A stretch of 43,212 bases of DNA. Origin: a virus. The notes beneath the pieces were generated by a model, which searched no databases, had not been told where the DNA came from, and saw nothing but the letters and a program-made list of their open reading frames with translations. Every line of letters begins with the position of its first letter. Within the stretch, counting starts at the first letter, position 1. Location of the stretch: the IMG/VR virus record IMGVR_UViG_3300023205_000043, positions 1 to 43,212 of that record. One strand, given 5' to 3'. Position numbers and translations under genes: made by a program. Positions 142 through 31,598 of the stretch are shown here, in pieces.

Positions 142-1727
142 CAGTATTCAAGGTATTAGAGAATATTGCTAAAGCATTTAGTAACGCTAGTCCTGAAACC
201 CAGAAATTTGTTGTTGCTATTGCAGCTATTGCGGCTGCAGTTGGACCAGTATTAGTTGTTATAGGTTCTTTACTTTCGGCGCTAGGATCCATTGCCACGG
301 CATTGGGACTAGCGGCAACTTGGCCAGTAGTTTTGGTAGCAGCAATTATTGCTATAGTTACTGTTCTAGTAACTTTCATTGTTACTCATTGGGACCAAAT
401 TAAAGCAAAAACAGAAGAAGTTTGGAATGCTATATCCACAACATTAACCAATGTTTGGACTTCTATTGTATCTGGAGCATCTTCAATATTCTCTAGTTTG
501 GGAGCCTTCTTCAGTGGGATTTGGACAGCAATATCCACTACCGTTTCATCAGTTTGGACTGGAATTGTAAGTTTCTTAACTAATCTGTGGACCGGAATTA
601 CCACAACTGCATCATCAATCTGGGGTGGCTTAACGGGTATATTTACTATGATTTTCCTAACTATCCAATCAGTTATTCAGGGTGTTTGGCTATTTATTAC
701 TTCATGGTTGCAATTTACTTGGCAATCAATTGTCGCCCTAACACAACCAATATGGCAACCAATTGCTTCCTTCTTTAGTAGTCTATGGCAAGGGATATCA
801 TCAGTAGCTCAATCAGTTTGGAATTCAGTTAGTTCATTCTTATCTGGAATATGGACTGGAATTAGTAACGTTGCTAAAACAGTGTTCAATGCTTTAAAAG
901 CATTTTTTAGTACAATTTGGAATGCTATCAAGTCTGTAACAACATCTGTTTGGAATGCTATCAAATCAGTTATTACCAGTGCTTGGAATGGTATTAAATC
1001 GGTTGTGACATCAGCATTAAATGCCGTGAAGTCAGCAGTTAGTTCAGGATGGAATGCCGTTAAATCCGCTACTTCTTCAGTATTAAATGCTGTTAAATCG
1101 GTTGTTACTTCAATTTGGAATGGTATTAAATCAACCATTTCATCAGTAGTTGATGGAGTTAAATCCAAGGTTACTAGTGGATGGAATGCCGTTAAGTCAG
1201 TCACATCAAGTGTCTGGAATGGTATTAAATCTGCAATGATAACTCCAGTAAATGCTGCTAAGAATAAGATTTCTGGAATAGTCGATGCCATTAAGAGATT
1301 CTTCTCTGGAATGCATCTGAGAATCCCTAGGATTTCATTACCACCTATGCCACATTTTCATTTAAGCGGTGAATTTAGTTTGAAGAACAAGACAGTTCCA
1401 CATCTTTCGGTATCATGGAATGCTATTGGTGGAATCATGACATCACCAATGATATTTGGATCAGCTGGAGGCCAATTGCAAGGTGGCGGCGAAGCTGGTC
1501 ATGAGGCTATATTGCCATTGAATTATAAGAACTTATCTGTAATTGGTAATCAAATTGCTCAAGCAACCGACGAAAAGGCTAATCAGTCTGTTACGCAGAA
1601 TATTCAAATGACTTTCAATAATACTGTTAGAGATAACGGAGATGTTAATAGAATCTTTGAAAAGGCTGATCAATGGATTGGACAAACTGGAATTAAAAAT
1701 AGTTTCGGAGTTAGGGGGAATGCCTAA
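1..1727 (+). CDS. Tail tape measure protein, C-terminal part (5' end cut by linearisation; continues from 41481-43212)
   Basis: Frame is open from the window edge and in phase with the ORF that runs off the right edge (105+43071 is in the same frame as 41481). Hydrophobic/aromatic 11-residue repeats. Sits directly upstream of Dit and Tal. Confidence 0.9.
   Translation, partial: LTNEAEKRYSTFSSKLKVVKNKVKDLGIEFGGPLMDALSNVLDAMQPVFKVLENIAKAFSNASPETQKFVVAIAAIAAAVGPVLVVIGSLLSALGSIATALGLAATWPVVLVAAIIAIVTVLVTFIVTHWDQIKAKTEEVWNAISTTLTNVWTSIVSGASSIFSSLGAFFSGIWTAISTTVSSVWTGIVSFLTNLWTGITTTASSIWGGLTGIFTMIFLTIQSVIQGVWLFITSWLQFTWQSIVALTQPIWQPIASFFSSLWQGISSVAQSVWNSVSSFLSGIWTGISNVAKTVFNALKAFFSTIWNAIKSVTTSVWNAIKSVITSAWNGIKSVVTSALNAVKSAVSSGWNAVKSATSSVLNAVKSVVTSIWNGIKSTISSVVDGVKSKVTSGWNAVKSVTSSVWNGIKSAMITPVNAAKNKISGIVDAIKRFFSGMHLRIPRISLPPMPHFHLSGEFSLKNKTVPHLSVSWNAIGGIMTSPMIFGSAGGQLQGGGEAGHEAILPLNYKNLSVIGNQIAQATDEKANQSVTQNIQMTFNNTVRDNGDVNRIFEKADQWIGQTGIKNSFGVRGNA
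918..1247 (+). repeat. About 10 tandem 33-bp (11-codon) repeats inside the tape measure gene (consensus W-N-x-I/V-K-S-V-x-T-S-x)
   Basis: TGG codons recur at 918, 951 and 984, continuing at 33-nt spacing. Peptide: WNAIKSVTTSV WNAIKSVITSA WNGIKSVVTSA ... Confidence 0.9.
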
Positions 1728-2416: not shown

Positions 2417-4230
2417 TTAGATTATTTCCCAAAAACGCTACCGAGGAGCAATTCAAAACAAACGGTATCGCTGTATTGGATAACGGAATTAAAAATAATG
2501 AAATATCTGAAATCAAAAATGGAATGTTTAGTTTTGATTTTGAATATTTTAGTGATTCAAAATTCAGTGACTTAATTAAGGGTGACATGATTATTGTTGC
2601 TCCGACTCCTTATGGTGATCAACCATTTAGAGTTCATAAAATCACGGAACAAATTGGATATGTAAAAGTTGAGTGTTATCACATATTTTATGATCTTGCA
2701 TCCAACCTAATAGAAGACTCCAATTTTGTTAAGTCAACCGGTACTGCATTAATGAATAGATTTAATGCTGCATTTCAATATTCAACTAGCTTTAGATTCA
2801 GCTCAGATATTGATACGGTTGCTAATTGTCGAATGGTAAGAATGAATCCTGTTCAGGCTTTACTTGATACATCAAAGGACAACACCTTTATTAACCGGTG
2901 GGGAGGAGAGATTCTTCGTGACGGTTATGATGTGAAATTTTTAAAGCATATTGGTTCCGATAGAGGATTCAAGATTAGTCATGGTAAGAATTTAACAGGT
3001 TATGACTATGTAATTGATTGGGAACCAACGGCAACTAGGATAATGCCCATCGGATTTGATGGATTAATATTGCCAGAAAAGTATGTTGATAGTCCACTTA
3101 TCAATGACTACCGGAATATAAAAATAGCAACAGTTAATTATCAAGATGTTAAAGCTGTCGATTCTAATTCACAGCAAAGCCAAGAGGGAGCAATTCCGCT
3201 TGAAGATGCTTATGCAAAATTAAGAGAATTGGCCAAAGATGATTTTAGTAAAGGTGCTGACAAACCCAGTATTAATATTAGGATTCAATTCAAGAATCTT
3301 GGTGATACTAAAGAATACGCACAATTCAAAAAGCTAGTTGATGTTAAGCCCTTCGATACTGTTCACGTAAGATTAGAAGATTATGACATTGAAGATAGAA
3401 TTATCAGTTATAAATATGACGCTATTACCCGTGAATACATCGAACTAGAGCTAGGAGATATTGTTCAAAAAGGTATTTCCGACAAAGTCAACAATACTGA
3501 AAATTCTATTAATGATGTAAAGGATCAGAATACCAATTTACAAAGTAATATAAATGATGTTCAAGACAATGTTAATAGTGTCCAGGACAACTTAGATATT
3601 GCAATTGGTAATGGTGACGACAAGATTGATGCAGCTGAACAAGAGGCCATTGATCGTATTGCTAATGTTAAAAGAATTGTTTCTCAAAACCAGGATGATA
3701 TTACCAGGATAATGAATTCTGGAGGTAACAATAAAATTCAGTGGTTGCCAAACTTTCAGAATGCTACTCAATTAAAAATCATTACTCCTTATGGTTACTG
3801 GTTACTAGACGACCACGGAGCTGGTTTTCATAGTAACAACGGTACTGTGATGAATGGACTTTCGGCTGATGGAAAAATTTATGCTGACGCAATTACTGGT
3901 AATAATTTGTATAGTACAACTATCACAGGTGGAACAATTAGTGGTGGTGTCATCAATGGTGCAATTATTAATGGTGCACAAATTGAAGGTGCTCAAGCTA
4001 TTAGGTTCCATAGCAGTAGTGGTATTAGTACTGCTATATCTGATTATGGTATTTCAACAAAAAGTTTAACTGTTCAGCATATTGAAGGTGTTATCTCAAT
4101 TAGTACTAGCAATATCGACGTTACTGACACTGCTACCATTAGATACTTACAAATTTCAGGAAATATAAGAGGAAATAATTCAGGGCTATATTTGCAGGGG
4201 CCTGTATACGTTGATGGAAGGGAAATTTAA
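2413..4230 (+). CDS. Tail-associated lysin / tail endopeptidase-like (Tal) minor structural protein
   Basis: 605 aa with an ATGA overlap onto the Dit gene. N-terminal region resembles the prophage-tail family. Central NxxD coiled-coil repeats and a Gly-rich C-terminus (GGTISGGVINGAIINGAQIEGA). Confidence 0.7.
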   Translation: MIRLFPKNATEEQFKTNGIAVLDNGIKNNEISEIKNGMFSFDFEYFSDSKFSDLIKGDMIIVAPTPYGDQPFRVHKITEQIGYVKVECYHIFYDLASNLIEDSNFVKSTGTALMNRFNAAFQYSTSFRFSSDIDTVANCRMVRMNPVQALLDTSKDNTFINRWGGEILRDGYDVKFLKHIGSDRGFKISHGKNLTGYDYVIDWEPTATRIMPIGFDGLILPEKYVDSPLINDYRNIKIATVNYQDVKAVDSNSQQSQEGAIPLEDAYAKLRELAKDDFSKGADKPSINIRIQFKNLGDTKEYAQFKKLVDVKPFDTVHVRLEDYDIEDRIISYKYDAITREYIELELGDIVQKGISDKVNNTENSINDVKDQNTNLQSNINDVQDNVNSVQDNLDIAIGNGDDKIDAAEQEAIDRIANVKRIVSQNQDDITRIMNSGGNNKIQWLPNFQNATQLKIITPYGYWLLDDHGAGFHSNNGTVMNGLSADGKIYADAITGNNLYSTTITGGTISGGVINGAIINGAQIEGAQAIRFHSSSGISTAISDYGISTKSLTVQHIEGVISISTSNIDVTDTATIRYLQISGNIRGNNSGLYLQGPVYVDGREI

Positions 4231-31339: not shown

Positions 31340-31372
31340 CATGCAAGAATCATGCAATAAACATGCAATCAA
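31340..31372 (+). repeat. Three phased 11-bp direct repeats CATGCAA-N4
   Basis: CATGCAA starts at 31340, 31351 and 31362, abutting the ArpU-like gene stop. Confidence 0.9.
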
Positions 31373-31527
31373 AACCCTGTTTTAAAGGATTATATTAGTA
31401 TCATAGATAATTTTGGTAAGAGTTATCTATACTTTCCGTTGTATTGGTTTTTGCATTGTAAACCTCCTTTATTTTATATGACTCAATTAGCTGGTGACTG
31501 ATTCATACGCAGTGCCGGCTTAATTAT

Positions 31528-31598
31528 AGGAATTTGGTGTAATGGTAACACCGAAGACTTCAAGCCTTCTAATGTGAGTTCGATTCTTACAATTCCTA
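31528..31598 (+). tRNA. tRNA with anticodon UCA (would decode UGA); the A1-U72 acceptor start is reminiscent of bacterial tRNA-Trp
   Basis: Manual fold: acceptor AGGAATT/AATTCCT, U8, D arm GTGT-AATGGTA-ACAC, anticodon arm GAAGA-CTTCAAG-CCTTC (31-39 is A.C), T arm GTGAG-TTCGATT-CTTAC, discriminator A. 71 nt. Confidence 0.7.

Follow-up and report, generated by a model that had tools for sequence, protein, structure and literature searches.

The locus considered here raises the question of why a phage that uses TGA as an ordinary stop codon should carry a tRNA gene with the anticodon UCA, from which ancestor such a gene was derived, and whether its product is likely to decode. The window, i.e. 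the whole stretch of DNA that was analysed, is a complete IMG/VR record of 43,212 bp with 141-bp direct terminal repeats, and the gene in question occupies positions 31528..31598 (+). ARAGORN called a tRNA at 31527-31600(+) with tca at position 34, while the Rfam model RF00005 aligned to 31528-31598(+) over its full length (1-71) with a score of 56.1 bits (gathering score 29, E=1.5e-9). Membership of RF00005 was judged by the presence of U8, A14, G18-G19, a T-loop of the form TTCRA, a 7-nt anticodon loop with U33 and a score above the gathering threshold; by this test, and in concordance with ARAGORN, the gene is a member of the tRNA family. It possesses a 7-bp acceptor stem (AGGAATT/AATTCCT in the Rfam structure line) that begins with A1-U72, followed by U8, a D arm composed of the stem GUGU/ACAC and a 7-nt loop (AAUGGUA), an anticodon stem (GAAGA/CCUUC) with an A31.C39 mismatch, the anticodon loop C-U-U-C-A-A-G (U33, U34-C35-A36, A37 and G38), a variable loop of 4 nt and the T arm GUGAG-UUCGAUU-CUUAC. 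The discriminator base is A73 and the CCA end is not encoded. The observation of a UCA tRNA gene at this position is therefore confirmed: every detail of the 71-nt cloverleaf listed in the initial annotation was recovered in the ARAGORN and Rfam structures, and the independent fold check that it had proposed gave a tRNA with a UCA anticodon in both programs.

The genes of the window are ordered as in a temperate siphovirus, and the tRNA cluster is located between the rightward early genes and those for an HNH endonuclease, TerS and TerL, downstream of which follow genes for the major head protein, an adaptor, the major tail protein, the tape measure protein, Dit, a further tail protein and the endolysin. 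TerL displays less than 50% identity to that of any named phage, but is 76-91% identical to TerL of prophages of Companilactobacillus bobalius, C. zhongbaensis, C. nodensis and Loigolactobacillus rennini, which makes a standard-code member of the Lactobacillaceae the almost certain host. The genome of C. bobalius encodes 57 tRNAs according to ARAGORN, including a canonical tRNA-Trp(CCA) with A1-U72 and G73, while none of these 57 has a UCA anticodon. The GC content of the phage genome is low (31-37%). Since the small proteins encoded on either side of the tRNA cluster yielded no match in Pfam or NCBIfam, the timing of expression of the cluster is judged from its position alone; similarly, the related-locus search retrieved no relatives by way of the 165-aa protein encoded upstream. 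Just 3' of the gene for this 165-aa protein, a 62-nt segment (31370-31431) contains the inverted repeat ATAGATAA...TTATCTAT and is 85% identical in the related loci L004 and L035; this repeat may represent an operator or the terminator of an early operon.

To establish the meaning of TGA in this genome, coding coverage, stop codons and their downstream extensions were compared. Under the standard code, 63 ORFs (selected at a length of at least 60 aa) cover 85% of the genome, as opposed to 84% when TGA is read as a sense codon. Approximately 15 credible genes, corresponding to about a quarter of the genes, terminate at TGA, and the TGA stops at 2414, 12909, 31337 and 32926 named in the initial annotation are real. 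In tblastn searches of all ORF products of three related prophages against the window, no in-frame TGA was found inside a real gene, as the alignments that did contain a stop corresponded to antisense or off-frame ORFs or ran a few residues beyond a normal stop. Neither of the two signs by which code-4 recoding was assessed (in-frame TGA codons in conserved genes, or a gain in coverage with TGA as sense) was thus observed, and the earlier view that the genome as a whole is not recoded stands. Among orthologous stops of real genes compared with three relatives, which do not carry the UCA tRNA, TGA was found in both partners in eight cases, in the window only in four and in the relative only in one; a loss of TGA stops was consequently not seen in this comparison.

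The suggestion that the tRNA drives readthrough of selected phage genes found no such target. The extensions from each TGA to the next in-frame stop comprise 0-52 codons and none enters a downstream gene; furthermore, no conserved extension was found behind any TGA stop of the window. The longest of these extensions (52 codons) follows the Dit gene (1727-2416), the stop of which forms an ATGA overlap with the start of the next gene. Three related prophages without a UCA tRNA possess the same Dit TGA, followed by extensions of 20, 52 and 31 codons that are poorly conserved in sequence. Programmed readthrough of Dit was therefore rejected on account of the ATGA overlap, the occurrence of the same TGA in relatives that lack the tRNA, and an extension that is variable in length and not conserved. 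Readthrough of host genes and a role in counter-defence, which had been proposed alongside, are conceivable. Passage of the phage through a host that reads UGA as Trp, also raised in the initial annotation, has left no sign: its relatives reside in Lactobacillaceae with the standard code, all homologous tRNAs have a CCA anticodon (see below) and in-frame TGA codons are lacking from real genes.

The ancestry of the gene was approached by a sensitive blastn search of the UCA tRNA against 50,697 phage records. The best match was an unannotated stretch in the Streptococcus parauberis prophages Javan383 and Javan407 (79.7% identity over 69 nt, E=2e-8), while the weaker matches were mostly annotated as tRNA-Trp. 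The Javan383 stretch proved to be a tRNA-Trp(CCA) gene located, as in the window, between the early genes and terS. The two tRNAs have 53 of 71 positions in common, including identical D and T arms, and both contain the A31.C39 mismatch. All 11 stem differences between them preserve pairing, comprising five fully compensated pairs and one change from G.U to G-C, and the tertiary 15-48 pair covaries (A-U in the UCA tRNA versus G-C in Javan383). When the Javan383 tRNA was in turn used as the query, a family emerged in phages of Streptococcus suis, S. oralis, Lactococcus and Enterococcus, among others, with members in Javan565, OlisA3, Lactococcus phages phiL47, PMBT69 and jm3, Enterococcus phage VRE9_1 and Staphylococcus phage PG-2021_4. 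Where these genes are annotated at all they carry the label tRNA-Trp, and ARAGORN assigned the anticodon CCA to every member that was fetched; CCA is also the anticodon of the Trp tRNAs of L012, L031 and the IAS virus. The cloverleaf of the family is strongly upheld by covariation: 97.4% of the cells are paired, double changes occur in 16 of 21 pairs, and none of 500 shuffles reached the observed value. As the A31.C39 mismatch recurs in Javan383, phiL47 and jm3, it is a family trait and not damage, and its earlier description as a flaw of the gene was mistaken.

The UCA tRNA resembles the tRNA-Trp(CCA) genes of Lactobacillales phages in its length of 71 nt, its 7-nt D loop, its 4-nt variable loop and its A1-U72 pair, and resembles those of temperate streptococcal phages in its position just upstream of terS. 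Its score with the general Rfam model (56.1 bits) is comparable to that of the Javan383 homologue (58.4 bits). In contrast, the other Lactobacillales-phage tRNAs combine CCA with G73 and A38, while the window copy combines UCA with A73 and G38: C34 and G73 are present in all eight CCA members that were compared and A38 in seven of them, none of the eight carries U34 or A73, and U34, G38 and A73 occur as a set in the window copy only.

A tRNA-Val(UAC) gene on L049 (6982-7052(-)), a 55-kb metagenome contig (ERZ1066116) with at least eight tRNA genes, matches the UCA tRNA exactly in its D arm and variable loop and differs from it by one base in the T-arm stem. Because these parts are thus not specific to one isotype, isotype covariance models were built. 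The Trp model (R1) was constructed from the eight CCA members, among which is the host tRNA-Trp, with the window copy excluded, and the Gly model (R2) from all Gly tRNAs in the table except host Gly-GCC. A gene was assigned to the Trp family if its R1 score was higher than that of any non-Trp tRNA and if the Trp model outscored the nearest rival isotype model. The UCA tRNA scored 74.1 bits with R1 and 62.3 bits with R2. Independent Trp tRNAs from the IAS virus, L012 and L031 reached 69.2, 65.4 and 53.6 bits with R1 and 51.9, 45.0 and 36.7 bits with R2, respectively, while the host tRNA-Trp, the only one of the eight training members that was searched, scored 82.6 bits with R1, and the members from which R1 was built scored 55-66 bits with R2. 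The best non-Trp tRNA on R1 was a Gly tRNA, at 68.8 bits. On R2, the host Gly tRNAs with UCC and CCC anticodons, both training members, scored 95.3 and 87.1 bits, and the non-training host Gly-GCC 68.0 bits, so that with R2 the UCA tRNA scores like a true Trp member and lower than a Gly tRNA on which the model was not trained. By its model scores the UCA tRNA thus belongs to the Trp family. The anticodon of Gly(UCC) is one base removed from UCA, but an origin from such a tRNA through a change of C36 to A was ruled out by this symmetric test, by the acceptor stem and by the discriminator. The Trp derivation of the putative opal decoder, put forward in the initial annotation on the strength of A1-U72, is consequently borne out at the sequence level by homology, common idiosyncrasies and model scores. 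Because it has UCA in place of the CCA anticodon that characterises the family, it is not an ordinary Trp(CCA) tRNA; rather, the sequences identify it as a derivative of the Lactobacillales-phage tRNA-Trp family in which the wobble base appears to have changed from C to U. More generally, the likeness to the Val tRNA suggests that phage tRNAs of differing isotype share bodies through duplication followed by a change of anticodon.

The search also uncovered tRNA-Trp(CCA) genes that are unannotated in Javan383 (L047:3005-3075, corresponding to MK448746.1 15193-15263), Javan565 (L107) and jm3 (L111). Upstream of terS in Javan383, isolated T-arm or minihelix-like remnants are positioned around the Trp tRNA (L047 ~2890-2915, 2960-3000 and 3360-3390), and remnant-rich tRNA slots at the early/late boundary may be common in temperate Lactobacillales phages. 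The tRNA-Trp copies of Javan383 and Javan565 contain a G3.U70 pair, which is the main identity mark for charging with alanine.

Next, the positions at which the window copy departs from its family were considered. Among the positions at which the eight CCA members are all alike, it differs only at 34, at 73 and at the compensated pair 28-42, and among those that are nearly invariant it differs at 38 and 15, the latter being compensated at 48. The clustering of the changes on decoding and identity positions is suggestive, although an enrichment on such positions was not significant (hypergeometric P ~0.14). U34, G38 and A73 are all transitions, in a genome that is AT-rich. The A36-A37-A38 motif is the determinant for the i6A37 modification, which strengthens the reading of codons that start with U, and eight of the nine host tRNAs with A36 possess A37-A38. 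As G38 breaks the motif, decoding by the UCA tRNA should be weaker. Furthermore, neither the combination of C32 with G38 nor a 31-39 mismatch was found in any of 40 distinct host tRNA anticodon arms.

With respect to charging, the identity set of bacterial tryptophanyl-tRNA synthetase (TrpRS) consists of C34/C35/A36 and G73, with A1-U72 and G5-C68 as minor elements (PMC12135181). The enzyme reads C35 and A36 specifically, while that of E. coli need not discriminate between C34 and U34; at the acceptor end, bacterial TrpRS depends chiefly on G73, and a G73A change lowers charging by the Bacillus subtilis enzyme approximately 9-fold (PMC12135181). The UCA tRNA retains C35 and A36 with a pyrimidine at position 34 (U34-C35-A36) as well as A1-U72, whereas G73 is replaced by A73 and G5-C68 by A5-U68; the host's own tRNA-Trp also has A5-U68. 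By these rules, A73 should weaken charging with Trp, but not exclude it. Taken together, A73 and G38, neither of which the initial annotation remarked on, are the features most likely to weaken the UCA tRNA; as judged from its sequence, it should accept Trp and decode both UGA and UGG, if only weakly.

An orthologue of the UCA tRNA was sought in several collections. Exact and degenerate pattern scans of IMG/VR (with either half of the gene, with the whole body and a free anticodon, and with the D arm plus UCA loop) identified none, and a pattern scan of JGI metagenome contigs returned as its sole match the tRNA-Val(UAC) described above. Likewise, none was found in 401 sampled Lactobacillaceae genomes, in the genomes of 41 Companilactobacillus species or, by blastn, in the plasmids of PLSDB, and megablast of the tRNA region against phages produced no match. 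The UCA tRNA is a singleton in these searches, and conservation of its anticodon is therefore not established. In relatives, the same slot is occupied by canonical tRNAs (Phe-GAA, Asn-GUU, Gln-UUG, Thr-UGU and Tyr-GUA, with a Lys tRNA in addition in L040), which indicates that the occupants of the slot are normally decoders. Given the varying isotypes and the lack of a UCA orthologue in these searches, the UCA tRNA is specific to its lineage, in a slot whose occupants turn over rapidly. Some part of the tRNA-cluster query matched 20 of the 41 Companilactobacillus genomes.

The remainder of the cluster is deviant in part. A tRNA remnant (31666..31745 (+)), recognised from its sequence and fold, is composed of a T arm (GATAGG-TTCGACT-CCTATC) and an acceptor-like pairing without a D or anticodon arm, and received no Rfam call even at E<=10. 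It is followed by a second tRNA-like gene (31800..31874 (+); ARAGORN 31799-31875, 52.2 bits with RF00005), which has A1-U72, A73, a 7-nt variable loop and an 8-nt anticodon loop (UUGAAUGG) in which ARAGORN reports the 4-base anticodon 'gaat'. Homologues of this second gene in related loci (L006:3276-3339 and L004:2641-2707, with Rfam scores of 48-51 bits, as well as L003 ~2510-2590, L093 ~1587-1652(-) and L092 ~1541-1680(-)) retain the acceptor, D and T arms, while the anticodon arm is shortened or deleted in differing ways. The repeated loss of this arm alongside preservation of the rest of the gene suggests a role other than decoding, for example that of a decoy or of a signal for processing. 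The idea of a dedicated +1 frameshift suppressor finds no support, as the anticodon arm is lost in the homologues, and the gene would not serve the candidate capsid frameshift either, since this is into the -1 frame, for which a 4-base anticodon is unfit.

Between the second gene and the end of the unit lies a conserved motif of ~35 nt (GAGAGTGGTGGTATCTCTAYGGRGACCATTGCG, 31882..31915 (+)), seen in an alignment with L003 and also present in L092 and L093; it has no Rfam family, and the query region that spans it matches several of the 41 Companilactobacillus genomes. The unit is closed by a terminator-like structure (31919..31950 (+)), which consists of a hairpin (31919-31945) with an 11-bp stem followed by TTTTT and is kept in relatives; it precedes a GGAGGA ribosome-binding site and the ATG of a gene at 31964. 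The 3' half of the second gene, the motif and the hairpin recur in relatives and in several Companilactobacillus genomes, and the motif and hairpin might together constitute a regulated terminator or a leader for the genes ahead of the packaging module. Further downstream, a minimal gene resembling tRNA-Arg(CCU), with 4 nt in its D loop (32489..32558 (+); ARAGORN 32490-32557, cct) is present in all close relatives (L002-L007), ~1.1 kb upstream of TerL. RNAalifold analysis of seven phages revealed nine pairs with compensatory changes in its acceptor, anticodon and T stems, while one acceptor pair is broken in the window copy. Rfam made no call in the window or in the relatives, and the gene appears to be a genuine if unusual phage tRNA that escapes standard covariance searches.

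The explanation that we favour for the UCA tRNA, with confidence that is about even, is that it would act as a weak Trp-inserting decoder of UGA and UGG during lytic growth, without a dedicated target. It is preferred because the cloverleaf has been under selection as a tRNA and because the slot normally contains working decoders. According to a mechanism inferred from established rules, the transcript would be excised by RNase P and 3' processing enzymes and would obtain its CCA end from the host CCA-adding enzyme. Host TrpRS would then charge it with Trp. The intact C35 and A36 should permit this, as bacterial TrpRS need not separate C34 from U34, but charging would be inefficient because the discriminator is A73 and not G73. 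On the ribosome, U34 would read both UGG and UGA, resulting in some Trp decoding and in opal suppression. G38, which can pair with C32 and would disrupt the A36-A37-A38 motif tied to i6A37 modification, is expected to lower decoding efficiency together with A31.C39. The predicted outcome is low-level readthrough of UGA as Trp in lytic growth, with no recoding of the phage genome, through which roughly one phage protein in four, as well as host proteins whose genes stop at UGA, would gain a few residues. The singleton status of the tRNA, its three window-specific transitions (two of which should weaken it), the TGA stops that have not been purged and the deviant neighbours (the gene with an 8-nt loop and the remnant) speak against this explanation.

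The main rival, a serious one that we consider possible though not probable, is that the gene is a neutral or decaying variant: a recent C-to-T change at the wobble position of a phage tRNA-Trp gene, accompanied by G73A and A38G, would have left a product with a negligible role in translation that is poorly charged or decodes poorly, and in which mutations that break the stems are yet to accumulate. Such a history is consistent with the absence of a conserved orthologue from the collections searched, with the near-uniformity of C34, G73 (eight of eight) and A38 (seven of eight) among the CCA members, from which the window copy deviates at these positions by transitions only, with an anticodon arm that combines features absent from all 40 distinct host arms, and with the persistence of TGA stops in the phage. 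The ~9-fold charging cost of G73A (PMC12135181) also fits, as does the presence in the same cluster of a remnant and of an 8-nt-loop gene whose homologues have lost the anticodon arm. Against it, the stems and tertiary pairs are all intact and include compensated changes, the Rfam score (56.1 bits) is close to that of the Javan383 CCA homologue (58.4 bits), selection still acts elsewhere in the cluster, where the Arg-CCU element covaries, and a tRNA whose charging has dropped 9-fold is still usable.

A less probable explanation, which we consider unlikely, assigns the changes to counter-defence: U34 and G38 would allow the tRNA to escape a nuclease that cleaves the anticodon loop of tRNA-Trp(CCA) while UGG is still read by wobble, and UGA readthrough would be a side effect tolerated late in infection. 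Two of the three window-specific changes are indeed in the anticodon loop, and the isotypes found in the slot of relatives (Gln, Asn, Tyr, Thr, Phe and, in L040, Lys) are frequent targets of known anticodon nucleases. Escape of phage tRNAs from VapC, PrrC and colicin-type tRNases through anticodon-loop changes has been put forward with supporting data (eLife 2023, PMC10264068), and a viral tRNA reportedly neutralises PARIS (PMC11464382). However, no tRNA-Trp-targeting nuclease is known in Companilactobacillus, tRNA-Trp is absent from PMC10264068, A73 is left unexplained, and a targeted change is without statistical support (P ~0.14). If U34, G38 and A73 are instead taken together as a selected set that escapes a tRNA-Trp-targeted defence (or serves another role in phage-host conflict) with UGG still read, and not as damage, the proposal becomes slightly less likely again; the tRNA would then be part of a cassette at the early/late boundary in which further tRNA-like RNAs, namely the 8-nt-loop gene and its relatives without an anticodon arm, would be kept for non-decoding roles.

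That the gene marks a first step towards TGA-to-Trp recoding, in which a suppressor tRNA is acquired before in-frame TGA codons appear, is very unlikely. The sequence of events was proposed for gut phages by Borges et al. (10.1101/2021.08.26.457843), and this precedent, together with the GC content of 31-37%, would accommodate it. That model, however, expects TGA to be depleted first, while here about a quarter of the stops are TGA, often fixed by ATGA overlaps; TGA is no rarer than in relatives, none is in frame, and no recoded relatives were found. Finally, it is scarcely credible that the gene encodes tRNA-Sec or an ordinary sense tRNA from a host in which UGA means Trp or Gly, both being excluded as far as sequence goes, because ARAGORN prints 'tRNA-SeC' for any tca anticodon and on no other ground here, because bacterial tRNA-Sec has an 8-bp acceptor stem (8/5 form), a long variable arm and G73 while the UCA tRNA (71 nt) combines a 7/5 arrangement of acceptor and T stems with a variable loop of 4 nt and with A73, and because the closest prophages reside in standard-code Companilactobacillus and Loigolactobacillus and the phage genes end in TGA with none in frame. 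Whether the tRNA is active or not, neither a tRNA-Sec label for the gene nor code 4 for the genome is appropriate in annotation.

For the weak decoder that we prefer, close parallels are known. Laboratory opal suppressors in which the anticodon of tRNA-Trp was altered from CCA to UCA, like the natural tRNA-Trp(UCA) of Mycoplasma, follow the same single-base route from C34 to U and read UGA as well as UGG; both retain G73 and A37-A38, while the window tRNA has A73 and G38 and is expected to be weaker. Phages of the standard code that encode TGA suppressor tRNAs are already known, as such tRNAs were acquired by standard-code relatives of TGA-recoded phages and were proposed to precede the change of code (Borges et al., 10.1101/2021.08.26.457843). 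These gut phages are similar to the present case in that a UCA tRNA, for which charging with Trp by host TrpRS is expected, is encoded by a phage of a standard-code host, but they are kin of recoded (code 4) lineages in which TGA stops are strongly depleted (e.g. 4 of 146 genes; 10.1101/2021.08.26.457843). In contrast, the window is that of a 43-kb temperate Lactobacillaceae phage in which TGA accounts for about one stop in four and for which no recoded relatives were found. It is this setting, a small temperate Lactobacillaceae phage without depletion of TGA stops, that is unusual.

If the tRNA is inactive, the locus simply captures one moment in the turnover of tRNA genes at a variable slot of phage genomes. 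If it is active, it would constitute a natural opal suppressor in a temperate phage of food-fermentation lactobacilli, as well as a UGA-decoding tRNA that is compatible with the host and could be used directly in genetic tools for lactic acid bacteria. Its activity would furthermore mean that suppressor tRNAs arise through a single change of the wobble base in ordinary small phages, without prior loss of TGA stops and far from the large gut phages in which recoding was studied.
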